A DNA stretch of 29,670 nt from a virus, in IMG/VR virus record IMGVR_UViG_3300045988_131075, positions 1-29,670 of that record. One strand, 5' to 3'. Within the stretch, counting starts at the first letter, position 1. Every line of letters starts with the position of its first letter. The position numbers and the translations under genes are program-made. The notes below the pieces were generated by a model. The model made no database searches, was not told the DNA's origin, and was given only the letters and a program-made list of their open reading frames with translations. Of this stretch, positions 698-28,597 are shown piece by piece.

Positions 698-1097
698 ATG
701 AATACCTCTTTTCTTATTTTCTATATATATTATATACTTTTTTTTTAAAAATGTCAAGATTTTTTTGGACGAAAACATACGCGTGAAACAATGTAAGGGC
801 GAAGCAATTTTTAATTAATCATAAGGCATATGATCCTACGCGGGCTTAAAAAAGTCTTTTTTTACCATTATAACATATTTTTTATAAAAAGTCAATTTTC
901 GGGATTTTTTTGGGCCATATGGAGAGGTGCTAGAAGTATGAAAAATTTTGCATATGGGTATACCGATCGGAAACTCGGCCCGGCACGTTCCATCGCGGGC
1001 CGGCCAAATAGACTGAGCATTCCGGGATTTTAGTCTGAGTCTATTTTAAACGTTTTTTTCGCGCAAAATTTACTAAACCTATAATTATTCCGAAATT

Positions 1098-1205
1098 CCG
1101 CCCGGAGCGTCAGTGATCGGGCGGTCCATTATACCACATTTTCCGATCGGTGTCAATAGGCAAAATGCACAAAAAAATCAGCAGGTTTTAGTCAACCTGC
1201 TGATT
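1098..1205. promoter_or_regulatory. Boundary module C1. It contains a GC hairpin ccgcccg-N13-cgggcgg (1098-1124) and a minus-strand promoter (-10 rc at 1128-1135 within GTGGTATAAT, -35 rc tgtcaa at 1151-1156). It ends with a bidirectional terminator hairpin at 1177-1204.
   Basis: Same architecture as C2-C6. Only a weak TATAAT sits on the + strand at about 1078, with no good -35. Confidence 0.65.
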
Positions 1206-2632: not shown

Positions 2633-2930
2633 AGTATCAATTCCTTTCTTTGGCGGTAGGTCGCTACCCTTTTGATATTATTAAGTATACCACATTTTAG
2701 AGGGCTTGTCAAGAGGTTTCGCAAACTTTTCACACGAATTACTACCCCGACCTGACGGATAATTTATTGTTTGTTGATTCAATCTATTTGTCAGCAAAAA
2801 TGCTTCGAGGATAATTGGTTCAATCAAACTCACTTTCACGTTCAACGTTTGGCTTTACAACGTGGTGTATTATGTTTTCTTCCTATACTTTCTCAAGGTC
2901 GCGCGCCCTCGGATTTCTTGGGCTACTCCC

Positions 2931-3290
2931 TCTTGACATTTTCTATTGTAGCACACTCGCTGGGATTTGTCAAGAAGTTTTCAAGAAAAAACTCATGAAT
3001 TTTTTCTTTTATCCCGTGCGTTCCGCTCCGAAGAGACCTTAACGTAATAGGTGAACGGTCTATTGCTACTTCCAACCGTAGCCCCACACCGACCTGTGGC
3101 TCAGGGGTTTCCCTCTTGACATTATTTATTGTAGCACTTTTCGCGCTACTTGTCAAGAGGGAATTTCAAATTTCTTTGAAAACGGGTCAGTTACCGAGTT
3201 ATCACACCCATCAGCGAAGCCGTTCGGCAATTCACTGTTCCCTCCTGACATTATCTATTATAGCAGATTGCCCACAGATTACAATTGACA
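2931..3290 (-). promoter_or_regulatory. Non-coding array of three palindromic promoter-like elements, E1 (2931-2975), E2 (3114-3160) and E3 (3243-3290). Each has the form cTCTTGACAtt-N6-ATTGTAGCA-N12-TTGTCAAGA. On the minus strand each reads as TTGACA-17-TGCTACAAT (E1, E2) or as a perfect extended -10 TGCTATAAT (E3).
   Basis: No ORF with an RBS lies within 2690-3340. The elements are spaced about 185 and 130 bp apart. The ORF-track 77-aa ORF at 2923..3156 is just a translation of these repeats. Confidence 0.6.
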
Positions 3291-3342
3291 AAATAACCAA
3301 ATTACGGGAAAAAATTTTCTTCACTTTTGGTCAACTTTTCTC

Positions 3343-3490
3343 TTGACAAAATTGGCGGGGCGTGGTATAATGGAAAATTCGGACCGCCACGTGCGCCAGC
3401 GGTCCGCCAATTTTATCACAAAAATCCGCGTTTGTCAATAGGCAAAATAGACAAAAAAAACTGCCCATTTTTGGGCAGTTTTTTATTTTA
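3343..3490. promoter_or_regulatory. Boundary module C2. It has a + promoter TTGACA(3343-3348)-17-TATAAT(3366-3371) with TG extension, and a GC hairpin cggaccgc-N12-gcggtccg (3380-3406). A minus promoter follows (-10 rc 3410-3415 with TG, -35 rc 3433-3438), then a bidirectional terminator (stem 3461-3478, T-run to 3484).
   Basis: All elements were read directly. The convergent promoters face each other across the hairpin. Confidence 0.75.
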
Positions 3491-3673
3491 GTCCAGCAGG
3501 TTAATCTCGCCAGGAATCCTAAAAGAATCCGCGTCCAGCGTGGAATTATAGTCCTCGGTAAAGAGTTCAATCATTCCACACTCTGCGCAGATAATATAGT
3601 CATGGTCGATTAAAATGCCCATGTGAGGGTCATTGTCATCAGGGACTACAAAAAGGACTTGTTTAGCGTTCAT
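3488..3673 (-). CDS. Small early protein of about 61 aa (MNAKQVLFVVPDDNDPHMGILIDHDYIICAECGMIELF...), with CxxC plus His and Asp residues that might bind metal.
   Basis: Start re-assigned to the ATG with AAGAGG 8 nt upstream. The gene ends inside the C2 terminator. The hairpin-embedded promoter at 3722-3750 is upstream. Confidence 0.6.
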   Translation of the reverse strand: MNAKQVLFVVPDDNDPHMGILIDHDYIICAECGMIELFTEDYNSTLDADSFRIPGEINLLD

Positions 3674-3750
3674 GTAAAACACCTCTTTCATTTGATACAT
3701 TGATTATACCATAGGGAATAGGACTTGTCAAGCCCTATTCCCTATTTTTT

Positions 3751-4527
3751 TTAGCTCATGTTTATCATGGGATTTTCCTTAATGTTTCGCATGAGCGCGC
3801 GCTGAAACTCGGTAGGCTTGGGGCGTTCCACCGTGGGAGTTTTGAAAAGGGACTTTTCCATTTCCTTGTGCTGTCGGACGCAATAGCGCAGAATCTCAAC
3901 TTCAATGAGGACATCTTCTAATCCCGTGTGGGATTCATCAAAACTGTCCTCGCCGCTGATAAAGCGATAGAGAATTTCTGCGGTGAAACGGAGCTGTCCG
4001 TTCTTGGTCTTGTAGCCGTTCTTTTCGCAATAGTCGCGGTAAGTGGGCATTTTGCCGATAACCTGACGTGCCATTTTCAACGTGTCCCAAATTTCGAGGT
4101 CGTAGGGGAAGAAATAGCGATACTTGCTTTTCGTGTCCCATCTTTGCGCGTTGTTACAGGCGTTAAGGTCGAACCGCATATTATGAGCGCAGACAAAAGA
4201 GCAGTTGTAGCGCTCGACACATTCGCAGAACGCAAGACGAATTTCGTAAAGGTCAGCCATAATGCGAGTGCCGTTTTGAATGTCCTCGACATAGCGGGGA
4301 ATCTTGTCGGCATAGTATGCGGACTGCATGAGGTCGCGCTCGTAGCAGAAAATGTCGCGATTCACAAAAGAATGAGTTTCATAAACATTTCCCTTGGAAT
4401 CAATGACCGCCCACCCAAAGTCGTAGGGCAATACATTTGACATATCCAGCTTATCGCCGTCCTGAATGGTGTTTGCGGTTTCCGTGTCCAGCATAATACC
4501 GTAGTTTCTGCGCCTATCAATACCCAT
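3751..4527 (-). CDS. DEDDh-family (DnaQ-like) 3'-5' exonuclease, 258 aa.
   Basis: Motif Exo I is IMLDTETAN. The C-terminal segment YRFISGEDSFDESHTGLEDV carries the His-x4-Asp of Exo III. Promoter TTGACA-17-TATACT, then the conserved 29-nt leader and AGGAGA RBS upstream (4540-4620). Confidence 0.7.
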   Translation of the reverse strand: MGIDRRRNYGIMLDTETANTIQDGDKLDMSNVLPYDFGWAVIDSKGNVYETHSFVNRDIFCYERDLMQSAYYADKIPRYVEDIQNGTRIMADLYEIRLAFCECVERYNCSFVCAHNMRFDLNACNNAQRWDTKSKYRYFFPYDLEIWDTLKMARQVIGKMPTYRDYCEKNGYKTKNGQLRFTAEILYRFISGEDSFDESHTGLEDVLIEVEILRYCVRQHKEMEKSLFKTPTVERPKPTEFQRALMRNIKENPMINMS

Positions 4528-4667
4528 TTTATCGTCTCCTATTGGAAAAGTAGATTGAGGTTTACCATCGTTCTCTCAACCTCTAAATATAGTATAGCAC
4601 TTTACTATTGGTTTGTCAATAGTTTTTTTGTGGGGCAGGGGATTTTTTTATCCCCTGCCCTTTTCCC

Positions 4668-5048
4668 TTATGCGCGGGAGAAGTAGGACTTGCGGTTGCC
4701 AACCGTCTTGACAACCGTGTCTGCGTCAATCATCTGACGCAGAAGAGCGGAAACGTGCTGGTTGGTATACTCCGCAAGCTTGGGAACGCCCTTGATGAGG
4801 TCGGTCACAGTATACAGCTTGTCGGGGTTTGCGGTCATCTCGTCCAGAATGACCTGCTTCACAGCGTCATTCTCCATCTGCTTGGCCGTGGGCTTCTTGT
4901 CGCCCGCGTTCTTTTTGACGAGCAGTTCAATCTCATGCTCGATGAACGCCACCATATCAGGATTTGCCTGAACCTCGCTCATTTTGAGCAGGGCCTCGAA
5001 ACGGTCACGCTTGGTGAGCTTCTTAGTCGTAGTAGTAGAAGTAGCCAT
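4668..5048 (-). CDS. Paralog B of the duplicated 125-aa early protein. It starts at MATSTTTTKKLTKRD, not at the ORF-track M 17 codons upstream, because the promoter -10 at 5101-5107 would put the TSS inside that extension.
   Basis: RBS aaaggaattgatact-ATG is identical to that of 2255..2632. The two proteins are about 70% identical with conserved ends. Confidence 0.7.
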   Translation of the reverse strand: MATSTTTTKKLTKRDRFEALLKMSEVQANPDMVAFIEHEIELLVKKNAGDKKPTAKQMENDAVKQVILDEMTANPDKLYTVTDLIKGVPKLAEYTNQHVSALLRQMIDADTVVKTVGNRKSYFSRA

Positions 5049-5545
5049 AGTATCAATTCCTTTCTGGTTTTTGAGACTGTCCTTGTCTATGGTAGTCATT
5101 ATATCATAGGCGGGAGTAGGTTGTCAATAGGTTTTTGCAATTTTTTTTAAGGGCGGTCGCGAGGTTTATTACTATACATCTTGTTTATACCTACCTTTAT
5201 CTATACTCTTAATCCAATTCAATTTACTAAGCCATTAGTTTTTAAGGCGGTGGACGAGCATTAGAAGTCATCTTGTTTTTACCTCTCTCATTTGATGTAT
5301 TCATTATACCCTACGTAGAACGATTTGTCAAGGGGTTTTTCAAACTTTTTTGAAAGTTTGTTCGGCACGCCACGCTTGGAACATTCCGTCGGATTTTGGT
5401 ATAATGGTCAAGGGAACTGCCTTTCCGCAGGTCTTACTCTTTCCTCCTGACATTATGTAGTATAGCAGATTGGTAATGATTTGTCTATTGGTAAAATGAC
5501 CAAATAACGGGAAAAAATAAAATTGAAATTTGTGCGAAATTTCTC

Positions 5546-5690
5546 TTGACAAAAATGCTGGCAGGGTGTATAATGGTAAATTCCGGCCGTAGCGCGCGGA
5601 AACGGCCGGCCCATTATATCACATTCAAGGAACTTTGTCAATAGTCAAAGTAAACAAAAAAATCTCCCCATTTTTGGGGAGATTTTCTTT
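5546..5690. promoter_or_regulatory. Boundary module C3. It has a + promoter TTGACA(5546-5551)-17-TATAAT(5569-5574), a hairpin ccggccg-N13-cggccgg (5583-5609) and a minus promoter (-10 rc ATTATA at 5613-5618 with TG, -35 rc at 5636-5641). It ends in a terminator, tctcccca-T5-ggggaga at 5664-5682 plus T-run.
   Basis: Direct reading. Confidence 0.75.
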
Positions 5691-5947
5691 TAGCCAATCA
5701 CATTGACTTCGGTTTTGACAGGCGTTACCATCTTGTCGCGCGAGAACTCGCGAACCTGACCCGTTTCAAGATTCACCGCGTAGCAATACTGCAAACCTCT
5801 CGACCGGACAAACGGCGTGTTGTTGTTGCTGTCAATTTTGAGATACATTCCCATACCGACCCCATTGGAGCGCAGAGTGGTGAACGTGCCACCGCTGGGA
5901 ATGTTGATAATTTGGAGCTGACCCTTAGTGCCAAAATTTACTTTCAT
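5690..5947 (-). CDS. Hypothetical early protein of about 85 aa (MKVNFGTKGQLQIINIPSGGTF...). Start set at the ATG with AAGAGGG 7 nt upstream.
   Basis: Ends at the C3 terminator. The following gene (5962..6276) lies 15 bp upstream. Confidence 0.55.
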   Translation of the reverse strand: MKVNFGTKGQLQIINIPSGGTFTTLRSNGVGMGMYLKIDSNNNTPFVRSRGLQYCYAVNLETGQVREFSRDKMVTPVKTEVNVIG

Positions 5948-5961
5948 TTTTATTCCCTCTT

Positions 5962-6276
5962 TCAAAATTCTTCTAAAAAGTGAATCGGCTTATGGTTTGG
6001 TCTAAAAAATGCCATTCCCTCGGTATAAAGAGAATTAAACAAATCTGCGGACACTTCAAACCATTCCGTGCCGCTAATGCGATTGCCTAACTCACTTAAA
6101 GTCAGATGACAAGAATTTTCCATGTCTCGACTTCCAGCGCAAGTGCTACGCATTATTGCTTTTGGATTATGGCTATAATAGCTTTTACGACGCTTTGCAA
6201 GGTTTTTAGTGCCGTCAGAATAGCCAACTTTAACCAAATGGCTATTGGTTAAATTATCCATCATCAAATACAGCAT
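5962..6276 (-). CDS. T5orf172-domain (GIY-YIG-like) protein, 104 aa.
   Basis: N-terminal LVKVGYSDGTKNLAKRRKSY and the C-terminal TEWFEV motif are typical of the T5orf172 family. RBS GAGG 5 nt before the ATG. Confidence 0.5.
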   Translation of the reverse strand: MLYLMMDNLTNSHLVKVGYSDGTKNLAKRRKSYYSHNPKAIMRSTCAGSRDMENSCHLTLSELGNRISGTEWFEVSADLFNSLYTEGMAFFRPNHKPIHFLEEF

Positions 6277-6283
6277 TTTTACC

Positions 6284-6427
6284 TCACAGCAGATGGATAT
6301 TAACCCATTCTGCGGTCACAAGTCCGATTTCCTTAGAGACAACCGTTTCATAGCGGTAATTACCGCCATCAGTTCGTCCGGTCACTTTGGCGAGAACGCC
6401 AAGAGTAAGCCAAAAATAAGGCATCAT
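6284..6427 (-). CDS. Small protein of about 47 aa (MMPYFWLTLGVLAKVTGRTDGGNYRYETVVSKEIGLVTAEWVNIHLL). The ORF-track 97-aa ORF is an N-terminally over-extended version that overlaps the upstream gene.
   Basis: RBS AAAGGGG 8 nt upstream of the ATG. The preceding gene ends 6 bp upstream. Confidence 0.45.
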   Translation of the reverse strand: MMPYFWLTLGVLAKVTGRTDGGNYRYETVVSKEIGLVTAEWVNIHLL

Positions 6428-6432
6428 TTTTA

Positions 6433-6639
6433 TCACCCCTTTGGACCGACCGTAAAGAGCGAACGCAGAAGCAACAGAACAATCCAAATTGCGAGTGCCA
6501 GCTTCCACGAGAACACAATGACGAAAGTGCCGATTGCGGTGATACCGAGGGCGGGAAGAAGCCAACAGAGAAGCCAAACCAGACCAGAGGTGAGCAGGAA
6601 CGAAATTGCGAGAGACAGCAGAATCAAAAGAACAAACAT
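6433..6639 (-). CDS. Small polytopic membrane protein, 68 aa, almost entirely hydrophobic.
   Basis: Promoter, then the conserved leader (gaatacatcaaatgaaaaggaga) and RBS upstream at 6640-6700. The -35 lies in the gggctttgtcaagccc palindrome. Confidence 0.6.
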   Translation of the reverse strand: MFVLLILLSLAISFLLTSGLVWLLCWLLPALGITAIGTFVIVFSWKLALAIWIVLLLLRSLFTVGPKG

Positions 6640-6694
6640 TTTATTTTCTCCTTTTCATTTGATGTATTTATTATACCATTGGAGTAGGGCTTTG

Positions 6695-7195
6695 TCAAGC
6701 CCTTTTCTCCAAAAGTTCCGAAAGTTTTTCGATAATGTTTACTGCGGTCGGGTCAATGGTAGCGCCCAAGTGCCAACCATTCCGAACTTTTTCATTATCG
6801 TCAACCAAGATGGACACGTCATAGCGGTCGCGCACGCTGTCGGCCTTAGTTGCGCCATACTGGACGCCATGGAAGTGGTCATAGTGGAAGCCCTGTTCTT
6901 CAAGCCATGCGCGCTTTGCTTCACGCACGAGGCTTTTGTATTCCTCGCTCGAATCCTTAGAGAGCCAAGTAATGATATTGATTTCCCAGCCCTCGGCGCG
7001 GAGAAGTTCGCAAACCTCATTCAATTCAGCCATGTCGCACATGGGAACGGCAGTTCGATAGGGCTTAGGATTTTCCGAACGGAGAAGCGCAAGCCAATCC
7101 TTGACGCCGTAGAGGTCAGCGATAGTGCCGTCCATGTCAAAGTTGATGGAGCGCCGACGAGCCACAACGTGGGACTTGATGTAAGTGATTTTCAT
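6695..7195 (-). CDS. HAD-superfamily 5'(3')-deoxyribonucleotidase-like protein, 166 aa.
   Basis: HAD motif I is FDMDGTIAD (DxDGT). Motif IV is ILVDDN near the C-terminus. The size and layout match the NT5C-type phage nucleotidases. Confidence 0.6.
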   Translation of the reverse strand: MKITYIKSHVVARRRSINFDMDGTIADLYGVKDWLALLRSENPKPYRTAVPMCDMAELNEVCELLRAEGWEINIITWLSKDSSEEYKSLVREAKRAWLEEQGFHYDHFHGVQYGATKADSVRDRYDVSILVDDNEKVRNGWHLGATIDPTAVNIIEKLSELLEKRA

Positions 7196-7201
7196 AGACG
7201 T

Positions 7202-7444
7202 TTATCTCTCCCCATTATCGTCTTTTTTAATAGCAACGCAGTCGTTTGACAGGTCATAGCAGAGCATAACCATAGTGTCAATAGCTTCGCGGTTGAAGCA
7301 AGTGCCGTTAGCTTCAAATGTTGCGGTGTCCTGATGGTTGAGTTCAGCACGAATACTTTCAAGAATTTCACTCATGCGGTCGATAGTATCGAGTTCTTCA
7401 TCAGTGAATGTGATGATGGCTTTCGAGCAAGAGTTGATAATCAT
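7202..7444 (-). CDS. Hypothetical acidic early protein, 80 aa.
   Basis: Consensus promoter TTGACA-17-TATAAT upstream (7455-7510 rc) and GGGG RBS. Stop and start abut the neighbouring genes. Confidence 0.55.
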   Translation of the reverse strand: MIINSCSKAIITFTDEELDTIDRMSEILESIRAELNHQDTATFEANGTCFNREAIDTMVMLCYDLSNDCVAIKKDDNGER

Positions 7445-7535
7445 TTTGGTTTACCCCTTTCCTTTACTATACTTGTATTATACCACTATTGGATTTGCTT
7501 GTCAAGTGTTTTTTTCAAAATTTTCGCGGTCTTTC

Positions 7536-7679
7536 TCAATACACGAAAGATAAGAAATTAAGCAAAATCAGCACAGGAATAGCGTATACGATATTGAAAT
7601 AGTCCCACCCGAGACTTTCACAGGAATAAGCAAAAATAAAGCCAAAAACGAGGCCGAAAATGCCGATTAAAATAATCAT
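7536..7679 (-). CDS. Small membrane peptide of about 47 aa (MIILIGIFGLVFGFIFAYSCESLGWDYFNIVYAIPVLILLNFLSFVY). Its start ATG overlaps the stop of the upstream gene (ATGA).
   Basis: AGAGGA 6 nt upstream of the ATG. This is the C-terminal part of the ORF-track ORF 7536..7721. Confidence 0.45.
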   Translation of the reverse strand: MIILIGIFGLVFGFIFAYSCESLGWDYFNIVYAIPVLILLNFLSFVY

Positions 7680-7939
7680 TCTAAATCCTCTATATGACCA
7701 TAGTGTTCGTTGATATGCCATTCAAGATAGGTATTAGTCGCAATCTGAATTTCTCTATCCAGCCAGTCATAAAAATCCTCGGGGTCGCGGGCCATGCGTT
7801 CATCAATGATATCTTTGAGAGAAACGCGGTGAGCAAGGAATTCCGAAATATCAAGAGAATCCATAGAAGAAAGAAGTTCTTCCACACATTCTCCGCGAGT
7901 AGAGAACTTTTCAGTAGAAAAATCGTGAGTGTAATACAT
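7676..7939 (-). CDS. Hypothetical acidic early protein, 87 aa.
   Basis: Promoter TAGACA-17-TATACT (7960-8000 rc) and GGGG RBS. The longer overlapping ORF 7690..8124 reads through this promoter and is rejected. Confidence 0.55.
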   Translation of the reverse strand: MYYTHDFSTEKFSTRGECVEELLSSMDSLDISEFLAHRVSLKDIIDERMARDPEDFYDWLDREIQIATNTYLEWHINEHYGHIEDLE

Positions 7940-8057
7940 TGTTTGTATCCCCTTTCTTTATGGTAATTATAGTATAGCAGATTATTACATTCTTGTCTAT
8001 TGGTAAAATGCCCAAATTCGGGAAAATAATTAGTTGGACTTTTGGCTAAATTTCCTA

Positions 8058-8200
8058 TTGACAAATTGCTGAGATGGTGGTATAATGGAATTTCCGGCCG
8101 TGGCATGCGCGAACGGCCGGCCATTTTATCACACTATTGGATTTTTGTCAATAGGCAAAATAGCTAAAAAAATGAGGTGAAAATTCACCTCAAATTTTAT
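8058..8200. promoter_or_regulatory. Boundary module C4. It has a + promoter TTGACA(8058-8063)-17-TATAAT(8081-8086) with TGG extension, a hairpin ccggccg-N13-cggccgg (8094-8120) and a minus promoter (-10 rc 8123-8128, -35 rc 8146-8151). The terminator is gaggtgaaaattcacctc at 8174-8191.
   Basis: Direct reading. Confidence 0.75.
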
Positions 8201-8376
8201 CTGTGATAACTGGTAGTAATGGTTTTGAAAATCTGATAGATATTTTCATCTTCCATCAACTTTTGGATAAAAGCATCAGCTTCTTCTTCGGAATCAAAAC
8301 TAACTCGATTATCATAATACTGGTCCCAAGGATTTTTACCGCTGTAATCAACCCGGAATGTCTTTTCAATTTCCAT
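8197..8376 (-). CDS. 59-aa acidic protein missed by the 60-aa ORF threshold (MEIEKTFRVDYSGKNPWDQYYDNRVSFDSEEEADAFIQKLMEDENIYQIFKTITTSYHR).
   Basis: RBS AAAAGGGG 8 nt upstream. Hairpin-embedded promoter at 8410-8447. The gene ends at the C4 terminator. Confidence 0.55.
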   Translation of the reverse strand: MEIEKTFRVDYSGKNPWDQYYDNRVSFDSEEEADAFIQKLMEDENIYQIFKTITTSYHR

Positions 8377-8451
8377 TTTATTTGCCCCTTTTCTTTGATG
8401 CTTTTATTGTAGCACAAGGGACTTGTTTTGTCAAGCCCCTTGTGCTATTTT

Positions 8452-8904
8452 TTAACGTTCAGACACAATGCTAAGGTAGCGGACAATCATGTCCATTTCG
8501 CAACCCATGTCTTGCTGGTCGCAAACCGCATAACCCACAAGGTCGCCGTCCGCACAAATCGGGTAAACACCATAAGTGTTATTGAAAACAAATGGCTTTC
8601 TTTTAAAATCCCACTGGGTCGAAACATAAGGCGGAAAGTTTTCCATACCCCGCAGTTTCACGGTAGTATCATAGATTGCGATGGGACGCAGACCGGAATT
8701 CGATGCCATTGTAATAGCGGTTCGCAGAGCTTCTTCGGTCAGCGAACCAAGCACCGAATATCTCTTGAAGCAAACGCAGTCGTTGTCTTCAATGAAGATT
8801 TCAAGCGGGTCGCCCTCGCGAATCTTCAAAGTCCGGCGAATCTCTTTCGGAATGACCACACGTCCAAGGTCATCAATTCTGCGAACAATACCAGTAGCTT
8901 TCAT
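8452..8904 (-). CDS. SpoVT/AbrB-family transcriptional regulator, 150 aa, with an N-terminal swapped-hairpin AbrB domain.
   Basis: The N-terminus MKATGIVRRIDDLGRVVIPKEIRRTLKIREGDPLEIF is near-identical in pattern to Bacillus AbrB and SpoVT N-domains. Promoter and conserved leader upstream. Confidence 0.75.
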   Translation of the reverse strand: MKATGIVRRIDDLGRVVIPKEIRRTLKIREGDPLEIFIEDNDCVCFKRYSVLGSLTEEALRTAITMASNSGLRPIAIYDTTVKLRGMENFPPYVSTQWDFKRKPFVFNNTYGVYPICADGDLVGYAVCDQQDMGCEMDMIVRYLSIVSER

Positions 8905-8968
8905 TTTAATTTTCCCCTTTCACTTGATACGTTAAGTATAGCAGAACAAAAGGCTTTTGTCAAGCCCT

Positions 8969-9451
8969 TTATTCAAGATTTTTGCTTTCTGCGACAAAAT
9001 ATTTTGCTTCATATTGATTGGCAATAGCCTTGACTTTTGCACTTTCCTTTTGGGTCGCGCAGTAAAAATTGAAAAGCGTATGTTTATCGCTTAATTTAAT
9101 GTAAGAGTGTGGAACGTCATGCAAGCCAAAGTCAATGGTATTAGTGTATCTTGTCGGGACAGTCAGCTCGACTTTCCATAGCTTGTCTTTGCGGGCTTTC
9201 TCTTCAATCCACTTGACAAAGTAGACGCCTACGAAATTACAAACAGCAGTAATAGCCATTTTCAACCAGATAGGCATACCGTCCGCGGAAGTCAGCACAA
9301 TCACATAGGAATAAAAACCATAAGTGATAGCATTGATAAGAGATGCGCTAATTTTTCCGCCGTTGACAGTCAAAATGCTTTTGATAGTTGACAGAACCAC
9401 ATTTACCGCCGTGCAAAGCGCGAACAGAAGAATTGTATTCATTATTATCAC
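8969..9451 (-). CDS. Membrane protein of 160 aa with about 3 TM segments in the N-terminal half.
   Basis: ORF with RBS AAGGAAAGGG. A promoter is upstream at 9480-9505. Confidence 0.55.
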   Translation of the reverse strand: MIIMNTILLFALCTAVNVVLSTIKSILTVNGGKISASLINAITYGFYSYVIVLTSADGMPIWLKMAITAVCNFVGVYFVKWIEEKARKDKLWKVELTVPTRYTNTIDFGLHDVPHSYIKLSDKHTLFNFYCATQKESAKVKAIANQYEAKYFVAESKNLE

Positions 9452-10118: not shown

Positions 10119-10240
10119 TTGACAAAAAACTCGGCGCGCCACAATCGTCCGCGCGCCGCCAATTTTATCACATTCAAGGAACTTTGTCAATAGTGAAAGT
10201 AAACAAAAAAAATCACCCAAATTGGGTGATTTTTCATTTA
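10119..10240. promoter_or_regulatory. Boundary module C5. It has a + TTGACA (10119-10124) directly abutting the hairpin cggcgcgc-N11-gcgcgccg (10132-10158), with no + strand -10. A minus promoter follows (-10 rc 10162-10167, -35 rc 10185-10190), then a terminator tcacccaaattgggtga (10213-10229) plus T-run.
   Basis: Compared with C2-C4, about 23 bp between the + -35 and the hairpin are missing. Confidence 0.7.
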
Positions 10241-11819: not shown

Positions 11820-11897
11820 GGTGTTTCTCCCTTTCCTTTATTGTATCTTTATTGTAGCATATAGGGCTTGTTTTGTCAAGCCCTATATGCAATTTTT

Positions 11898-12206
11898 TTA
11901 GCAATAGGCGAGATTCCCGCGTGCCCAGCCATATACGCTGATTTGATTGCACGCCTTGCCAATTTCAAGCGCCTGCTTTTTGGTCTGCACCCTCTTGGAC
12001 TTGTCAACATAATAGATGCCGTTCGCAAGCCATACACCGCAGTTTCCGCCGAAGCCCTTAACCGCATTGATAGCTTCGCGGGCGGTCTTGCACTCAACGC
12101 CGTTGGTAGCGACCTGCCAACCGGACTTGTAGTTGACTTTCTTGCCATATTTGAGGGTCATGCCGTCGTTTTCAGCGAGCTTGCGAATAGAACGAATGTT
12201 AATCAT
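11898..12206 (-). CDS. Hypothetical protein of about 102 aa (MINIRSIRKLAENDGMTLKYGKKVNYKSGWQVATNG...), with the start re-assigned.
   Basis: AAAGGGA 7 nt before this ATG. Promoter TAGACA-17-TATACT upstream. The ORF-track 156-aa version starts upstream of that promoter. Confidence 0.5.
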   Translation of the reverse strand: MINIRSIRKLAENDGMTLKYGKKVNYKSGWQVATNGVECKTAREAINAVKGFGGNCGVWLANGIYYVDKSKRVQTKKQALEIGKACNQISVYGWARGNLAYC

Positions 12207-12334: not shown

Positions 12335-12455
12335 TTGACACAAAATTCCGGCCGCGCCTGGCGTGCACGGCCGGCCGATTATATCACCAAGTTTTGAAAT
12401 TGTCAATAGGCAAAATATACAAAAAAATCTCCCCATTTTTGGAGAGATTTTTAAT
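12335..12455. promoter_or_regulatory. Boundary module C6. It has a + TTGACA (12335-12340) abutting the hairpin ccggccg-N13-cggccgg (12348-12374) and a minus promoter (-10 rc ATTATA at 12378-12383 with TG, -35 rc at 12401-12406). The terminator is tctcccca-T5-ggagaga (12428-12447).
   Basis: Like C5, it lacks the + strand -10. Confidence 0.7.
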
Positions 12456-14328: not shown

Positions 14329-14355
14329 CGGCGCGCTGCGACCCACAGCGCGCCG
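14329..14355. promoter_or_regulatory. Orphan copy (C7) of the module GC hairpin, cggcgcgc-N11-gcgcgccg. It has no associated promoter or terminator.
   Basis: Same stem as C5, with a different loop. Flanked by AT-rich tandem repeats. Confidence 0.55.
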
Positions 14356-14382
14356 GCCAAATGCATATGTATGATTATTCAT

Positions 14383-14440
14383 GTATATTCATTGTATATT
14401 CATTGTATATTCATTGTATATTCATTGTATATTTATTCAT
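14383..14440. repeat. Tandem 11-bp repeat gtatattcatt, 4 perfect copies plus a variant. A second pair of 14-bp repeats, tgtataaatattca x2, is at 14222-14249.
   Basis: Direct reading. Confidence 0.8.
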
Positions 14441-14450
14441 ACATAATATG

Positions 14451-14484
14451 CAAAAATAGAGAGAGACTTAATAAGCCTCTCTCC
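14451..14484 (-). terminator. Intrinsic terminator for the minus-strand operon: hairpin gagagag-N11-ctctctc, followed on the minus strand by a T-run.
   Basis: The stop codon of 14468..14830 lies in the hairpin loop. Confidence 0.55.
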
Positions 14485-14830
14485 ACACCTTGATTATTTC
14501 ATCATCTGCTATATCATCTGTGTCATTGTCGTTTATCCACAAAAGCAGAAAATCATTATCATCAATGGTCATATTCTCAACTTCCCATTGGTTGCCACGT
14601 TCGTCCAGTAGCGTGATGGTGTTACCATTTCGGGAAACGACCTCTGCACCGATAAAGCGTATGCTTCCTCTCTCTGTGCCAGCGCCACACCATTCATCTA
14701 ATGCGGTGAGGTCGTAGGACTGGGGCGCTTCCTCACAGGCTTCCGCGGTTGTGTGGTCGTGAAATCCGAAGAAAGACACGGAGAGAATGATGGCAATGGC
14801 CATGGTGATGATTTTGGAAACGTTTTTCAT
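14468..14830 (-). CDS. Secreted or membrane-anchored protein of 120 aa with an N-terminal signal/TM segment (MKNVSKIITMAIAIILSVSFFGF).
   Basis: AAGAGG 9 nt upstream of the ATG. Hydrophobic N-terminus followed by an acidic domain. Confidence 0.6.
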   Translation of the reverse strand: MKNVSKIITMAIAIILSVSFFGFHDHTTAEACEEAPQSYDLTALDEWCGAGTERGSIRFIGAEVVSRNGNTITLLDERGNQWEVENMTIDDNDFLLLWINDNDTDDIADDEIIKVWREAY

Positions 14831-15959: not shown

Positions 15960-16280
15960 ACAATTGACGGATTGCACAAAGATTTGTTTTATACGGGGCG
16001 GGCTTTTGTGCAATCTACCGCCGGGCGGCACCCTTACATCATACCTTTGCATTTTTATTCATTCAAGAATGAATAAAACCTGCATAGAGGGGGGGTGTAT
16101 TTCGGGAAAAATAAATTTTTATTTATCGTTTTTTCTTTTGCCTGGTCAAAACGCAATCTAAATCAATTTTCAATTTCAGATTACGAAGAATAATTTAAAT
16201 TTATCATAATCAATTTTCAATTTCAAAATACGGTTTAAAACAATAAATCAATTTTCGATTTCAAATTACGACTTCTTTTT
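15960..16280. promoter_or_regulatory. Non-coding region between the two genome modules. It holds a perfect 11-bp inverted repeat gattgcacaaa/tttgtgcaatc (15970-15980 and 16005-16015), a 22-bp palindrome ttattcattc-aa-gaatgaataa (16055-16076) and a palindrome aaaaataaatttttattt. Three iterons aatcaattttc(a/g)atttcaNaWtacg lie at about 16160, 16209 and 16246.
   Basis: Direct reading. No ORF with an RBS apart from the small gene at 16266-16400. Confidence 0.6.
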
Positions 16281-16400
16281 TCTACCTCTTTTAGGCTTCT
16301 CACCCCACATAAGAGTGTATAATCCAGAAGTAGCAGAGTAAGTAGCCTTCTGCTGATACTTTTTAGCGACTGCCTTCAAGGGACTGAGTGGTTTCCGCAT
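16266..16400 (-). CDS. 44-aa basic peptide (MRKPLSPLKAVAKKYQQKATYSATSGLYTLMWGEKPKRGRKKKS).
   Basis: GGAGG 9 nt upstream of the ATG. TAA stop. Its 3' end overlaps the third iteron. Confidence 0.4.
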   Translation of the reverse strand: MRKPLSPLKAVAKKYQQKATYSATSGLYTLMWGEKPKRGRKKKS

Positions 16401-16424
16401 TTAATTTTTCCTCCATATATTCGA

Positions 16425-16745
16425 TTAATTTATCTTTATATTTACAACTATCAATATATCTATTAATAATTTTTCCATTAAGTGTTCTAATACATATTTG
16501 TATTTATTCAACTGATATTCTTCTTGTTCTTCTTTGGTGCTTAATTGAGCCTTTTCCGCGTCTGATAAAGGTCTGTAAGTAATCGTTCTTGACCCATTAT
16601 CCTTTTGCTCAATACGTATTGTTTTAAATAATTTCCAATCTCTTACAAAAGGGTCTTTATCTCTTGTAGTGTTAAAATATTCTTGTTCTAATCTAAATAT
16701 TACCGCGTCTATCCCTCTTACTTCAAAAGGCTGGTTCCATCCCAT
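16425..16745 (-). CDS. Hypothetical protein of about 106 aa (MGWNQPFEVRGIDAVIFRLEQEYFNTTRDKDPFVRDWKLF...).
   Basis: GGGAGG 9 nt before this ATG, inside the 3' end of the upstream gene. The ORF-track N-terminal extension has no RBS. Confidence 0.5.
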   Translation of the reverse strand: MGWNQPFEVRGIDAVIFRLEQEYFNTTRDKDPFVRDWKLFKTIRIEQKDNGSRTITYRPLSDAEKAQLSTKEEQEEYQLNKYKYVLEHLMEKLLIDILIVVNIKIN

Positions 16746-17115
16746 CTTCAATATCCTCCCATTCAAATGTTCCATCATCTAATTCATATACAAATGCTTG
16801 TTTATAAAATGATGAAACAATTCCATCATTTGCGATTCCTTTTGGACTATTTTTCACATCATGAAAACAATTATAAACAATTAATCCTTGCGTTTCATAT
16901 CGTGAAAAATCTACTGCCCTTCCCTCAAAATCATAATTATAAAATATGTTTAATAATAGCATACACTCATATTGTGCGATTGGCCATTTATTTAATTCTT
17001 TTTGCTAATTTACCATTTTTTGATATAATACCAAAAAGGCTTTTCTATATAACCATAAAAAAAGAAGTGATGCTACTAACGCACAACTCAATAATACAAT
17101 AAAAATAGTTTCCAT
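16723..17115 (-). CDS. N-terminally membrane-anchored protein. It is about 130 aa if the in-frame TAG at 17005-17007 is read as sense; otherwise it is a 36-aa TM peptide plus the ORF-track 79-aa ORF.
   Basis: GGAG 5 nt before the ATG at 17115. The ORF-track start at 16962 has no RBS. The two ORFs share a frame and are separated only by TAG. Confidence 0.45.
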
Positions 17116-17264
17116 AAATACTCCTTTTCTTTTTTCTTTTTTTTTTCTTATAATAATAATAAAATAAAAATAAAGAAATGTCAAATCGTAGCGTGATTGG
17201 GCAAAAGTTATTTGTTTTGTTAAAAAAATTTTTAAATATAAAAAGAAAAAATTTTAAATAAAAC

Positions 17265-17293
17265 TTGACAAAAAAAATTTTTTCGAGTATAAT
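17265..17293 (+). promoter_or_regulatory. Consensus promoter of the late (structural) operon: TTGACA(17265-17270)-17-TATAAT(17288-17293). GGAGG lies 6 nt before the ATG at 17318.
   Basis: Direct reading. An extremely AT-rich UP-like region lies upstream (17100-17260). Confidence 0.75.
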
Positions 17294-17317
17294 ATAAATA
17301 TAGACTGGAGGTAAAAA

Positions 17318-18373
17318 ATGATAAAACTTGATTATTCTTTACAAACTCCAGAAGAAAGAAATCAATTAGTCGAACAAATTTTGGCTGATAATCCAGATCC
17401 GCCTGAAAAGTATTTAGAAATTTTAGCAGACTATTTGGTTCTTTGTATGGAGAAACAAGAAAAAAAGGAGAAAAAATTATTAACTGATAATCGTATGGCT
17501 ACAGTTAATAAGCGTGAGACTTCTTTTGAAGGTCTTGTTTCCCAACTCGAAAATGGCGAAGATGGAATTTATAATTTAATTACAGATAATAGAAATACAA
17601 TATTTCAACCACATATTACAATTACAAAAAAAGATTTAGAAGAGATACCAAGTTTAAATTAGTTAAGAGAAGCCATTAATGTTTGGGAGGCTAAATTAAA
17701 AGTAACAGAAGGTAAAGATGCTTTTGTTATTAAAAAGGCTCTTATTGAAATGCGTAAAGATTAGTATGTTATGAAAAATGCTTATCGTCGTCCAATAGTG
17801 CCTACAAAATTAACCAGATCAAAGTCTTATATTCCATTAGATGATAAAACATTTATTTTTGATGATGATGGTTTTCCCATTCCTGATGGAATTAGTTTAT
17901 TAAGACCTGAAATATGTTCTGCGGTTTTATGTAATTATTCCCGATTAAAACAAGATAGTTGGGGCGAATATGATAAAGATTTATGGTATTTAATGGAGGA
18001 TTTTGATAAGCTTTGTGATAAAGCGTTAGCTAATTATCCTCTTTATGATAGAATCGTTGAATATAAAATTGATGGTTTACAAAATATTGACATTCAAGAG
18101 AAAATACAAATGGAATTTGGTATTAAGCACAGCCTTGAATATATTTCAAGTTTATGGCGTAATAAAATTCCAAAATTAATTGCTTCGACTGCGGAAGATG
18201 AATATTTAGATAATTATTATTTAAATGTTGAAAAAGGTAAATATAAAAAATGTAGTCGTTGTGGTAAAATAAAATTAGCTCATAATAAATATTTTAGTAA
18301 AAATAAAACAAGTAAAGATGGCTTTTATAGTATTTGTAAAAGTTGTCGAAATTCTAAGGTCAAAAAATCTTAA
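17318..18373 (+). CDS. First late gene, about 351 aa with 2 in-frame TAG codons (at 17660 and 17762). It has a C-terminal Zn-ribbon, CSRCG...AHNKY...CKSCRN, possibly an HNH-like nuclease or a regulator.
   Basis: ORF-track ORFs 17318..17662 and 17771..18373 are in the same frame and are separated only by TAG codons. TAA stop. Confidence 0.55.
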
Positions 18374-18422
18374 TATTGTCTTTTTGTTTATAATAAATAG
18401 TTGAAAGGAGAATATTTTATTT

Positions 18423-19610
18423 ATGGCTGAAACATATTATTGCGAAAAATGTAATCGTACAATGAATAGCACGGAATTTTATTCGTCTAATAATTTAGAA
18501 AAATATCCTAATGATGGTAAATTTCCTGTGTGCAAAAAATGTATGACAATGCACGTCGATAATTGGAATCCAGATACTTATTTATGGATTTTACAAGAAG
18601 CGGATGTTCCTTATGTTCCAGATGAATGGAATAAATTAATGGAAAAATATGGGCGCGATCCGCAGTCTATGACTGGTATGACAATTCTTGGACGTTATTT
18701 GTCAAAAATGAAACTCAAATAGTTTAAAGATTATCGTTGGAAAGATACAGAATTTTTATAGTAGATGGCGAATAATAAATTAGAGCAAACTATGAAGCGT
18801 CAAGGATATGATGCTCAATAGATTGCAACCGCTATTGAAAAAAGTTCTATTGCTATTCCAGGAGGAGAATTAAAAGAACCGGTTTATGCTCCACCACCTA
18901 ATGCCCCTACGGAAGATTATTTCGCACAATAGAGTGGTAAAGTGGAACAAGAATTAGACTTAACTGATGAAGACCGCACTTACTTAAGACTTAAATGGGG
19001 TAAAACTTATAAACCTGAAGAATGGGTTAAGCTTGAATAGTTATATGAAGAAATGATGGCTTCTTATGATATTCAAGGCGCCGGACATAAAGATACGCTA
19101 AAATTAATATGTAAGACATCTTTAAAGGCAAATCAATTGATCGATATTGGTGATATTGAAGGTTTCCAAAAGATGAGCAAAGTATACGATAGCTTAATGA
19201 AGTCTGGTAAATTTACTGCTGCTCAAAACAAAGCAGAATCAGGTGAATTTGTTGATTCAATTGGTGAATTAATTGAATTGTGTGAAAAAGAAGGATATAT
19301 TGAAAGATATTATGTTGAATAGCCACATGATAAAGTGGATTTAACTATTCAAGATATGCAACGTTATACTCGTACTCTTATTGAAGATGAAACTAATATT
19401 AGCACAATGGTAGAAAAAGCTTTACGCGAAAATGCTAAAGAAGATGAAGAGAAAGCAAAGAACGCGGAAAGCGATATCGTTGATGATGCTGATTTAAGTA
19501 TTGAAGAACTTGAAAAAACTATTAAAGATAGTGATTACGCGGATTTTGAGGAATTTAAAGAATAGGAGTCCGCGCAAGATAATGAGTTCTTATAGAGTTT
19601 GGATAAATAA
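18423..19610 (+). CDS. Late protein of about 395 aa with about 8 in-frame TAG codons and an N-terminal CxxC...CxxC Zn-ribbon. Its position immediately upstream of terL suggests the small terminase subunit; this is speculative.
   Basis: ORF-track pieces 18423..18722, 19053..19322 and 19335..19565 share one frame. Only TAG separates them. Ends with TAA at 19608-19610. Confidence 0.55.
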
Positions 19611-21349
19611 TGGCATTACAAGATTTGTTATAGTTAAGTGATAGCCGTAGAAAAATAGGTCTATCACCTGAGCGAGTAGAAGCGGTAATGCCTACTATCC
19701 GCAAATACGTTGCCTTTTGGAGAGAATATCCTGATTTATTTGTAGATTTTATGGTGCGAGGAAGACGCACTGAAATAAAAGATGGAGAATTTAATTTTTA
19801 TTTTTATTAGAGAGTATTTCTCCGTTCTGTTATGCGTTATTAGTATGTTTACGCGGTTTTCCCTCGTGCTTATTCTAAATCATTCTTGTCTGTTATGGCA
19901 TTAATGATTAGATGTATTTTATATCCTGGTGCGCACTTGTTCGTTACTTCTGGAGGTAAAGAGCAAGGTGCTAGTATTCTTCATGATAAAGTTCAAGAAA
20001 TATGTGAACTTGTTCCAAGCTTTAATCGAGAAATTGATTGGAGTCGAGGAAAAACTCTTGAAGGAAAAGATAAAGTTAGATATGTGTTTAAAAATGGTTC
20101 AGTTTTGGATAACCTCGCAGCTCGTGAAAGCACTCGTGGTCAGCGTCGTCATGGTGGATTAATGGAAGAATGTGTCGGTATTGATGATACTATTCTTCGT
20201 GAAGTTATTATTCCTGTTATGGCAATTTCTCGTAGAGCTAAAGATGGCACTACCAATGAACAAGAGCCATTAAATAAATCACAAATTTATATTACTACTG
20301 CTGGTTATAAGGGCACATTCCCTTATGATAGACTTATTGGTTTCTTAGTTCGTATGGTGACTTAGCCCGATCGTTGTATGGTATTAGGCGGAACATGGCG
20401 AACTCCTGTTGCAGTAGGATTACAAAGTAAAACATTTATTACTGACCAAAAGAATGAAGGAACTTATAATGAAGCTTCATTCGAACGTGAATATGAATCT
20501 AAGTGGTCAGGAACTGTTGAGGATGCTTTCTTTAATGGAGAGCATTTTGATAGAAATAGAAAACTATTATAGCCTGAATATGAAGCTTCTGGGCGCGCGG
20601 GCGCACAAGCTTATTATGTGCTTTCTGTAGATGTAGGTCGTAAAGGATGCGATTCAGTAGTTTGTGTATTTAAAGTAACACCACAAGCTCAAGGTCCAGC
20701 TATTAAATCATTAGTAAATATGTATACTATGTCAGATGACCATTTTGAAGATTAGGCTATTAAATTAAAGAAATTATTTTATAAATATAAAGCTAAAACT
20801 TTAGTTATAGATGGTAATGGTTTAGGTATTGGACTTTTAGATTATATGGTAAAATCTCAAAATGATGAAGATGGTGAATTTTTACCTGATTTTGGTGTTG
20901 AGAATGATGATGATGGATATTATAAAAAATATCGCACACCAAATACTCAATTTGATGCTATGTATGTTATTAAAGCAAATGCTCCAATAAATACTGAATG
21001 TCATGCTAATGCTCAGACTCAATTGCAAGCGGGTAAAGTAAAATTCTTAATAGATGAGAGAACAGCTAAAGAAAAATTATTAGCTACTCAAAAAGGTTCA
21101 AAAATGACTTCTGAACAAAGGGCAGATTATTTAAAACCATTTACTTTAACCTCCATATTAAAAGAAGAAATGATGAATTTACGCGAAGAAAATGAAGGTA
21201 TTAATATTATCCTAAAACAGGCAAATCGCGGAATTCGTAAAGATAAATTTTCGGCTTTTGAATATGGATTATATTATTTAAAACTTGAAGAAGATAAAAA
21301 GAAAAAACGTAAAAAGTTTAATGCGGCTGATTGGTGCTTTTTAAATTAA
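19610..21349 (+). CDS. terL: Terminase large subunit, about 579 aa with at least 6 in-frame TAG codons.
   Basis: ATPase motifs PRAYSKSF (Walker A-like) and GLMEECVGID (Walker B). Nuclease motifs YVLSVDVGRKGCDSVVCVFK and LVIDGNGLGIG. The pieces 19886..20365, 20378..20572 and 20846..21349 are in the same frame. The start overlaps the upstream TAA (TAATG). Confidence 0.8.
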
Positions 21350-21361
21350 GGAGGGTGGAAA

Positions 21362-21718
21362 ATGCGTGCTTCAAGAGGAGAAATTAAAATTGAAGAAATC
21401 TTAGAAGAAGCAGGACTACCTTTTAAAATGGAATATATCTTTCCAGATTTAAAAAGCCCAAGCGGGCGTCCGCTTCGTTTTGATTTTGTTATATTTGATG
21501 ATGATGGAAAAATTGATTTCATTATTGAGTATTAGGGAAAATAGCATTATGAAGCCAGTTCTAAATTTGGTGGAAAACGCGGTTTATACCAATAGCAATA
21601 TAATGATAATCAAAAAAGACGTTTTTGCGCTTTACATGATTTTAGATTAATAGAGATTCCATATACCGACGAAAACCTTATTTCTTATGATTATATAATG
21701 AAATTAGCAGGTTATTAA
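21362..21718 (+). CDS. DUF559/Vsr-like (PD-(D/E)xK) endonuclease of about 118 aa with 3 in-frame TAG codons.
   Basis: RFDFVIFDDDGKIDFIIEYQGKQHYE matches the hDF...hIEhDGxQH signature. GGAGG 7 nt before the ATG. TAA stop. Confidence 0.45.
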
Positions 21719-21731
21719 AGGAGGTGGAACT

Positions 21732-23381: not shown

Positions 23382-23390
23382 GGAGGATTT

Positions 23391-24968: not shown

Positions 24969-24985
24969 TAAGGAGGACATACTAA

Positions 24986-25903: not shown

Positions 25904-25920
25904 GAAAGGAGAAAAGGATA

Positions 25921-27027: not shown

Positions 27028-27045
27028 TTTAATATAAATTATTCC

Positions 27046-27090
27046 ATGGGGAGAAGGGATTAAACTCCCTCTCCCCATATTTTTGTTTTA
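27046..27090 (+). terminator. Intrinsic terminator after the capsid gene: hairpin ggggagaaggga-ttaaac-tccctctcccc, then a T-rich run atatttttgtttta.
   Basis: Direct reading. Confidence 0.7.
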
Positions 27091-27113
27091 TGAGTAAAAG
27101 GAGAAATTGAATA

Positions 27114-27707: not shown

Positions 27708-27726
27708 TTTATAGGAGGGCGATTAA

Positions 27727-28299: not shown

Positions 28300-28597
28300 A
28301 TATAATTTTGATATTCCAATAGAGAGTATAAAAGTAAATTGTTTGCGCTTAACCAATCAATTATGGAAATTAATTCCAATGCGCGAAAATAATGAAGATT
28401 GGCATAAATAGCTAGAAACTGTTATAAATGAAATTGTGGGGTTTAGTGTGATTTTTAACGCTGAACCCCTTTATTTATAGTTATTAAATAAACTTGAGGG
28501 ATTGTAGAATCAAGATACTGATTTTAATTTTTATCGTAAGACTGTGTTTGAAACGATTAGTCTTTTATAGGAGATAAATTATGGCGTCAGGGTTTGA
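28289..28597 (+). CDS. Possible small late protein of about 102 aa with 4 in-frame TAG codons. It overlaps both neighbours.
   Basis: It is the only stop-free frame (under TAG read-through) filling the 280-bp gap. No clear RBS. Confidence 0.3.

Follow-up and report, generated by a model that had tools for sequence, protein, structure and literature searches.

The window analysed here is the whole 29,670-nt stretch of IMG/VR record IMGVR_UViG_3300045988_131075, which represents the early region of an uncultivated gut siphovirus related to phAss-1 that uses TAG as a sense codon. Its early genes occupy the minus strand from position 1 to about 17,200, at about 42% G+C. Among them we identified six full copies (C1 to C6) of a promoter-terminator module, each containing a terminator (T1) and an early promoter (P1), at intervals of about 2.0-2.5 kb. 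In C2, C3 and C4, a perfect promoter on the plus strand, which we call P+, faces P1 across a 27-nt GC-rich hairpin. The conservation of this head-on arrangement in related phages suggests that P+ is under selection and could act by interfering with P1.

The modules start at 1092, 3374, 5577, 8087, 10126 and 12342, with spacings of 2282, 2203, 2510, 2039 and 2216 nt, and the coordinates of their parts are collected in Table 1. Read along the minus strand, a module consists of T1, P1, the hairpin, the reversed P+ (C2-C4 only), a spacer of about 60 nt, a second promoter (P2) and the first gene; in two modules, C2 and C3, P2 is followed not by that gene but by a short unit that has no long open reading frame (ORF). 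T1 is the terminator of the right-hand operon, and its U-run doubles as the T-rich upstream region of P1. P2, the weaker of the two minus-strand promoters (TAGACA-17-TATACT or TTGTAA-16-TATAAT, with TG), lies to the left of P+, so that P+ converges with P1 and points away from P2. The three promoters have a common -35 context, consisting of CT[A/C]TTGACAAA and a T-rich upstream region. Past the hairpin, in plus-strand order, come the minus-strand P1 -10 after 2-3 nt, then the P1 -35, a conserved ATAGGCAAAAT..AAAAAAA stretch and the terminator hairpin.

The geometry at the centre of the module is nearly fixed. The P1 -10 lies 2-4 nt from the stem and the P+ -10 7-8 nt from it (8 or 7 in C2-C4), and the two -10 elements are 36-39 nt apart in canonical modules, with a mode of 38. 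The predicted P1 start is 6-7 nt past its -10, inside the stem arm, and is a G in 91% of modules. That of P+ falls 2-3 nt ahead of the stem, which places the two predicted starts about 24-26 bp apart.

Table 1. Positions of module features in the window. Promoter scores are out of 12; starts and RNA ends are predicted.
Feature	Position	Strand	Details
P+ of C2	3343-3371	+	TTGACA-17-TGgTATAAT; 12/12 with TG; start about 3377/3378
Central hairpin of C2	3380-3406		8-bp GC stem, 11-nt loop; covariation in 76 modules
P1 of C2	3410-3438	-	TTGACA-17-TGaTAAAAT; 11/12; -10 3410-3415, -35 3433-3438; start about 3403/3404, in hairpin arm
Bidirectional terminator T1 of C2	3455-3484		Flagged on both strands and by folding; ends the right-hand minus-strand operon and the predicted plus-strand RNA (about 3378-3487)
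P2 of C2	3257-3284	-	TTGTAA-16-TATAAT with TG; divergent from P+; promoter scan and sequence
P+ of C3	5546-5574	+	TTGACA-17-TATAAT, without TG; 12/12; start about 5580/5581
Central hairpin of C3	5583-5609		
P1 of C3	5613-5641	-	TTGACA-17-TGaTATAAT; 12/12; -10 5613-5618, -35 5636-5641; start about 5606/5607
Bidirectional terminator T1 of C3	5656-5689		Predicted plus-strand RNA about 5581-5691
P2 of C3	5459-5487	-	TAGACA-17-TATACT with TG
P+ of C4	8058-8086	+	TTGACA-17-TGgTATAAT; 12/12; start about 8092/8093
Central hairpin of C4	8094-8120		
P1 of C4	8123-8151	-	TTGACA-17-TGaTAAAAT; 11/12; -10 8123-8128, -35 8146-8151; start about 8116/8117
Terminator T1 of C4	8173-8192		Weak plus-strand T-tract AAATTTTAT; predicted plus-strand RNA about 8093-8198
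P2 of C4	7971-7999	-	TAGACA-17-TATACT with TG
Module C5 (type B)	10119-10235		Plus-strand TTGACA 10119-10124 abuts hairpin 10132-10158; P1 10162-10190 (-); T1 10207-10235
Module C6 (type B)	12335-12452		TTGACA 12335-12340 (+); hairpin 12348-12374; P1 12378-12406 (-); T1 12423-12452
Module C1 (type C)	1098-1205		Without plus-strand -35 or -10; hairpin 1098-1124; P1 1128-1156 (-); T1 1176-1205
Degenerate eighth module	14329-14486		Hairpin 14329-14355; 11-nt tandem repeat ATTCATTGTAT x5 at 14376-14435, replacing P1; minus-strand terminator 14456-14486
Orphan hairpin	976-1002		Adjoins an insertion of about 122 nt relative to relatives

Exact matches to TTGACA-N17-TATAAT occur 14 times in the window, against 0.02 expected by chance. 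Four are on the plus strand: the P+ of C2, C3 and C4, which score 12/12 on the strand opposite to the early genes, and a perfect promoter at 17265-17293 that drives a sigma-factor-like gene, the first gene of that strand. A sequence-only reading of this DNA had described perfect promoters with an extended -10 in all three modules, pointing into the hairpin and P1. The orientation agrees with the coordinates in each module, and the hexamers and the 17-nt spacer are present throughout; the TG is found in C2 and C4 and is missing from C3. More broadly, the first 20 kb contain 103 promoter-like sites, compared with 51 ± 7 in shuffled sequence, and about 30 sites on the minus strand score 11-12/12.

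Relatives were gathered with a pattern built from the P1 -35 and its upstream region, which yielded 89 IMG/VR loci, mostly on contigs of 80-200 kb; the IMG/VR source of the window, 3300045988, is rich in relatives. The same pattern matches many contigs from metagenome-assembled genomes (MAGs), binned largely as Clostridia. CAMELE010000001.1 (163.9 kb; L125, L133, L134), labelled as an "uncultured Mollicutes" MAG, has six modules in the same order as the window and is probably a complete, mis-binned relative of the phage. The 121 distinct modules could be divided into 55 with P+ (type A), 37 in which a plus-strand TTGACA alone abuts the hairpin (type B) and 29 with neither -35 nor -10 (type C). 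P+ was bimodal in its occurrence, with no mismatches in 56 of 122 IMG/VR modules, one mismatch in 2, and at least three in all the others. Among 46 distinct type A modules, both the -35 and the -10 hexamers were 99.6% identical, as compared with 72% for the spacer, 76% for the initial 8 transcribed nucleotides and 69% for the upstream sequence. Independent MAG contigs have a perfect P+ beside quite different hairpins, and the head-on pair is likewise retained around different hairpins in distant relatives (L013, L031, L033, L048; L098-L120). Given invariant hexamers in variable surroundings, the perfect-or-absent distribution and the persistence of the pair with different hairpins, we conclude that P+ is in all probability a real promoter. 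It would be of the host sigma-A/sigma-70 type, its predicted activity maintained by purifying selection and not a product of chance or decay.

The same comparison changes the interpretation of C5 and C6. The plus-strand -35 does abut the hairpin in both, as had been noted, and the six-module alignment has a 24-column gap (put at about 23 bp previously) over the spacer and -10, with the TTGACA kept. These modules had been called decayed copies. Judging from the alignments, however, type B is a conserved and maintained variant, since 37 distinct modules from distant phages lack the -10 in this way while their TTGACA, together with the T-rich sequence upstream of it, is intact. By inspection, no hidden -10 was found in the -10-less modules, either 17 nt after the TTGACA or with the hairpin "removed" as a cruciform.

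Transcription from P+ would produce RNAs of about 110, 111 and 106 nt in C2, C3 and C4, running from the base of the GC hairpin to the module terminator, in good agreement with the 105-110 nt proposed before. In C2 and C3, where the plus-strand T-tract is good, the RNA would stop at the bidirectional terminator, and we think it likely that a terminated RNA of about 110 nt is made from these two P+. The T-tract of C4 is weak, so its RNA may read on to a plus-strand terminator at about 8411-8453. The predicted RNAs fold as a 5' hairpin plus terminator (z about -5). They contain no ribosome-binding site or start codon, and the only plus-strand ORF listed there, 3327-3491, begins upstream of the predicted start. 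The Rfam 15 covariance models gave no match at the gathering score, and at E <= 1 gave only sub-threshold matches centred on the terminator. Transcription-driven genome entry from the left end was ruled out as a role for P+, whose transcripts should reach a terminator after about 110 nt.

The plus-strand RNA had been described as antisense to the whole of the early operon's promoter and 5' end, which is not borne out. By coordinates and predicted ends, it is complementary to the first 24-26 nt or so of the P1 RNA and to the terminator hairpin of about 35 nt that forms the 3' end of the right-hand operon's mRNA. Between these two stretches it covers untranscribed promoter DNA, and P2 is never touched. 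Every segment of the predicted RNA (hairpin, P1 region and terminator) is equally conserved in modules without P+. The plus-strand T-tract is usable in most modules with P+ and absent in some (for example L029:7935-8055 and L067:7850-7969), where the terminator works for the minus strand only, and it is not significantly better in modules with P+ than in the others (p = 0.057, on non-independent data). Because the plus-strand termination signal is not conserved, we consider the conserved feature to be the act of transcription from P+ and not a defined RNA.

The central hairpin is conserved independently of P+. Six copies had been counted; we found eight in the window, against 0.1 expected, the additional ones being at 976-1002, with no promoter alongside, and in the degenerate eighth module. 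Across 76 modules, 93% of the positions in the 8-bp stem pair, double changes are seen in 119 cells, and covariation scores 0.50, compared with 0.16 in shuffles and no more than 0.09 in shifted registers. With 14 of each, G:T pairs are as rare as A:C pairs, and thus neither strand appears to be favoured for folding. The loop, 11 nt in most modules, has a conserved C..CGT on the plus strand, and every module type keeps AAATT on the left flank of the stem and CC on its right. The outer pairs also covary without P+, with no mismatches at pair 10-34 among 34 such modules, even though the predicted P1 RNA would lack the outer 2-3 pairs of the stem.

The hairpin is treated here as an element separate from the promoters. 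Its GC stem would suit an intrinsic terminator, but the loop is 11 nt in most modules, compared with the 3-8 nt usual in a terminator, where a U-run follows the stem at once. In modules with P+, the U-run that follows it is only AAUUUU on the minus strand or CCAAUUUUAU on the plus strand. Across modules, the stem is followed by A(A/G)UUU on the minus strand; in type B, U6 comes after a few bases, as in C5 (CGAG plus T6 from an 8-bp stem, or G plus T6 in relatives with 9 bp). A terminator scan flagged the hairpins at 3406-3380 and 12374-12348 on the minus strand. Candidate roles are a back-up stop or pause for minus-strand read-through, which P1 RNA would escape because it starts inside the hairpin, a stabilising terminal stem-loop, and a palindrome acting at the DNA level. 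A CRISPR-repeat mimic was ruled out, as the hairpin sequence is not conserved and the sole weak CRISPR-DR match is elsewhere, at 3915-3939. The G-rich spacer of P+ is complementary to the hairpin loop in C2 only and not in C3, which we treat as coincidence. The P1 leader itself folds weakly, with z about -2 in type B, from the inverted -35 regions of P+ and P2, and z about 0 in type A.

We propose that P+ competes with P1 and occludes it. An open complex covers DNA to about +20. With predicted starts only 24-26 bp apart, open complexes at P+ and P1 would clash, so that two polymerases could not occupy the pair together. This spacing would also favour competition and occlusion over collision or the "sitting duck" mechanism, which need 39-62 bp. 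Each transcription event from P+ would pass directly over P1 and thereby lower the contribution of P1 to the leftward early operon, in cis. P2 would keep up a basal supply and, since it lies behind P+ and points away from it, the operon would be tuned rather than switched off. The short antisense RNA, of about 106-111 nt in the window, would be a product or by-product of this traffic; its pairing with the P1 RNA or with the right-hand 3' hairpin may add control at the RNA level, which would not be the conserved feature. Of 54 modules with P+, 38 have a non-consensus P1 -10, mostly TAAAAT, compared with 12 of 47 without (Fisher p = 9e-6, for modules that are not phylogenetically independent). 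This weaker P1 -10 where P+ is present suggests that P+ is dominant and P1 subordinate, as in the helD pair of Bacillus subtilis discussed below. Antisense or interference control of the early operons had already been suggested from the sequence alone; what stands of it is the conserved P+ head-on to P1, with the predicted RNA of about 110 nt in C2 and C3, and not the full antisense overlap.

Several considerations weigh against this proposal. The activity of P+ and the start sites are predictions, as are the direction and size of the interference, drawn from the observed elements and their geometry, conservation and covariation. P1 is itself near-consensus (11-12/12), with a TG, a T-rich upstream region and a GG discriminator, and so the winning promoter is not readable from the sequence. 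The effect on the operon may be modest, P2 being out of reach of P+. Common ancestry may account for part of the link between P+ and a weak P1 -10, which could also come from selection for the U-run (AUUUUA) that follows the hairpin in the plus-strand RNA. The proposal does not explain the hairpin, which covaries equally in modules without P+, and it gives no reason for the retention of the plus-strand TTGACA in the -10-less modules. Taking these points together, we regard interference with P1 in cis as the main role of P+ with evenly balanced confidence.

Alternatively, the plus-strand RNA could be a cis-acting effector, like lambda OOP or P22 sar, that pairs with the right-hand 3' hairpin, with read-through crossing P1, and with the P1 5' end, so that RNase III cleavage shortens the life of the early mRNAs. 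Its 5'-terminal stem-loop and 3' terminator would make it stable, its coordinates make it a perfect complement of the neighbouring 3' end and of the beginning of the P1 RNA, and the T-tract is usable in most modules with P+. The overlaps are short, however, and lie within stable hairpins, the plus-strand terminator is missing in some of these modules and, over all of them, not significantly better than in modules without P+, and nothing in the RNA segments is specific to P+; we consider this explanation unlikely. The hairpin could instead be a functional pause, termination or protein-binding RNA that P+ delivers complete at the 5' end of a transcript, for instance to hold up the P+ polymerase on top of the P1 -10, at the AUUUUA that comes next, or as a decoy. 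The strong structural selection on the stem and the conserved loop motif fit this idea, as does the P+ start just before the stem, given that P1 RNA would lack the outer pairs; where P+ is present, moreover, the usual TAAAAT of P1 puts U4 after the stem in the plus-strand RNA. Against it are the equal conservation of the hairpin, outer pairs included, where P+ is absent, the copies with no adjacent promoter at 976-1002 and 14329-14355, the lack of strand preference among G:T and A:C pairs, and a loop of 11 nt with a 3-nt gap before a run of four U, which makes a poor terminator. We judge it quite improbable.

A trans-acting or autonomous small structured RNA, such as a host or late-gene regulator or an anti-defence decoy, would be in keeping with a very strong promoter present in three copies per genome and with a compact, stable product. 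A family of small structured RNAs had indeed been offered as an alternative to antisense control. The middle of the RNA, however, is simply complementary to P1 and the T-run upstream of it, the hairpin varies in sequence between copies and phages and so provides no common seed, the 3' end is not conserved (several relatives have no plus-strand T-tract), the same segments are conserved without P+, and Rfam gave nothing beyond the terminator-centred matches mentioned above. We give this possibility very little credence, the least of those considered here. P+ might also be a functionless by-product, an inverted copy arising in recombination-prone promoter-terminator cassettes like those of T4-like phages described below. 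The -35 context shared by P1, P2 and P+ is compatible with such an origin, as are the recurrence of modules every 2.0-2.5 kb or so and the differing distances in relatives. Neutral copies would be expected to decay gradually, whereas P+ is either perfect or gone, with invariant hexamers, and the arrangement persists with unrelated hairpins in distant phages; a by-product therefore seems very unlikely. Head-on transcription is favoured over a dedicated small RNA because of the close starts, the weak P1 -10, the unspecific terminator and the conservation of the RNA segments without P+.

An extension of the interference proposal is that the pair serves as a repressor-free timer or sensor of host polymerase availability in selected early operons of a stop-codon-recoded phage, with the hairpin as a further, previously undescribed element that would affect read-through on the minus strand or make polymerase pause. 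When active sigma-A polymerase is abundant, the perfect P+, with a predicted A/U start in an AT-rich start region, would silence P1, whose predicted start is a G inside a GC block. If the phage or starvation were to deplete or redirect polymerase or GTP, the balance would shift and P1 would fire. Should this be true, the C2-C4 operons would run on a different schedule from those of C1, C5 and C6. We regard this extension as improbable.

The early region is approximately a series of segmental units of 2.0-2.5 kb, with paralogous genes in neighbouring units at 74-89% DNA identity; 2255-2632 and 4668-5048 are one such pair of segments. Inter-module distances and the left halves of the modules vary among relatives that have the same T1, and the differing distances between the same modules suggest cassette shuffling at the modules. 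On the minus strand, 2660-3290 and 5330-5460 contain strong promoters (P2 of C2, 3156, 2973 and P2 of C3) with no long ORF after them. All four have a conserved ATGTCA(A/G)GAGG 5 nt after the -10, and these units, which had no Rfam match, could be leaderless mini-ORFs starting MSGG or MSRG (18-38 amino acids) or non-coding RNAs. A second promoter class occurs at 3700-3750, 6667-6717, 8403-8453, 8932-8982 and 11848-11898, with the minus-strand -35 TTGACA within a hairpin loop (GGGCTTGACAAGCCC type). These hairpins are followed by T6-7 on the plus strand, and would therefore be plus-strand-only terminators inside minus-strand operons. Their presence suggests that plus-strand (antisense) transcription does take place across the early region, to a degree that has to be stopped.

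The product of one early gene, 8452-8904 (minus strand), contains an AbrB/MazE (SpoVT-AbrB) DNA-binding domain and is a candidate for a phage regulator of the module promoters. A protein with a T5orf172 domain is encoded at 5962-6276. The window opens, at positions 1-154, with about seven copies of a tandem 17-nt unit, AAAATTGCGAGAGTGTG, within a 73-nt repeat; this array may mark an end of the genome, an origin or a site of packaging. The G+C content falls sharply, from about 42% to about 31%, at the divergent early/late boundary (about 16000-17300), and from 17,300 on the genes are on the plus strand. There, 17315-29645 holds 11 back-to-back ORFs of 122-580 amino acids that are open only if TAG is a sense codon: they contain 47 in-frame TAGs, and every one stops at TAA. 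The minus-strand early genes stop at TAA (23), TGA (13) and TAG (1). No suppressor tRNA was found within the window. The late genes include those for a portal protein and for the sigma-like protein (17315-18373), which has two in-frame TAGs of its own. The nearest named relative is phAss-1, a TAG-recoded gut siphovirus with 50% amino acid identity for one structural-region protein. Its host was predicted by its authors to be among the Clostridia, and promoters or repeats were not described (PMC10607447). The present phage, too, probably infects a member of the Clostridia. The module is absent from the first 40 kb of phAss-1, and no nucleotide match to 3000-9000 (megablast) or to the whole module (sensitive blastn) was found among 50,697 phage records.

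Regulation by paired head-on promoters is simple and needs no repressor, but, to our knowledge, few cases have been documented in bacteria and phages. Here the pair is a standard repeated part, strictly conserved in a family of TAG-sense gut phages and placed on some early operons only. If P+ throttles P1, it would be a built-in way to grade or time early operons, and the compact cassette of about 150 bp (terminator, promoter, hairpin and opposed promoter) could be of use in Gram-positive synthetic biology. The structural selection on the hairpin in every module, explained by neither promoter, is a separate question.

Phages and plasmids offer several parallels. The pR and pL promoters of coliphage 186 are reportedly face-to-face with starts 62 bp apart (Callen et al. 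2004). Like this pair and the Pe/Pc pair of phage P2, the module has convergent phage promoters of which the stronger would pass over the weaker; unlike it, the module is not a single repressor-controlled lysis-lysogeny switch, and the 186 pair has no repeated cassette, hairpin or short terminated RNA. P22 sar (Pant/Psar) and lambda OOP are antisense RNAs of about 70-77 nt with an intrinsic terminator, and OOP acts by way of RNase III on the cII mRNA at its 3' end. The predicted plus-strand RNA would resemble them in being short, in its intrinsic terminator as predicted for C2 and C3, and in coming from a promoter that faces an early or regulatory transcript. Those RNAs overlap the coding or ribosome-binding sequence of one gene, whereas the plus-strand RNA overlaps one hairpin at a 5' end and another that belongs to a terminator, and its own 3' end is not conserved among relatives. 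The prgQ/prgX pair of the Enterococcus plasmid pCF10 is a Firmicute example of convergent promoters that combine transcriptional interference with antisense RNA; it has a 223-bp overlap, is present in a single copy, and is under the control of a repressor and a peptide pheromone.

In layout, the modules also recall the PeSL cassettes of T4-like phages, in which an early promoter and a stem-loop terminator are repeated between small early genes of a variable region (PMC2839356, PMC4122927). These cassettes, from phages of Gram-negative hosts, are likely substrates for modular shuffling (PMC2839356, PMC4122927). The likeness is in the repeated early promoter plus stem-loop terminator flanking small early genes, and PeSL has neither an opposed promoter nor a promoter-proximal covarying hairpin.

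By analogy, the closest mechanistic match is B. subtilis PhelD/Panti-helD, convergent promoters 39 bp apart in which the antisense promoter is stronger, with faster escape, and represses the sense promoter while producing a terminated RNA of about 90 nt (PMC12802891). Like this pair and Ppps/Panti-pps, P+ and P1 are face-to-face sigma-A promoters a few tens of base pairs apart in a Bacillota-type system, and the helD antisense RNA likewise ends at an intrinsic terminator next to that of the upstream gene (PMC12802891). In both, repression would come from polymerase traffic with no repressor protein, although the phage case is a prediction (PMC12802891). Both polymerases can bind at the 39-bp helD spacing, whereas the phage promoters, about 24-26 bp apart, would be mutually exclusive; when the helD gap was shortened by 17 bp (del17, 22 bp), steric exclusion resulted (PMC12802891). 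A link to rifampicin or another signal is known for the helD side only. The phage pair differs further in having a covarying GC hairpin between the promoters, three copies per genome and P2 behind the antisense promoter. The type of control is thus a known one, and the novelty lies in how it is packaged, as a head-on pair of fixed geometry centred on a hairpin, present three times per genome and in some modules only, and conserved in a large family of uncultivated phages.

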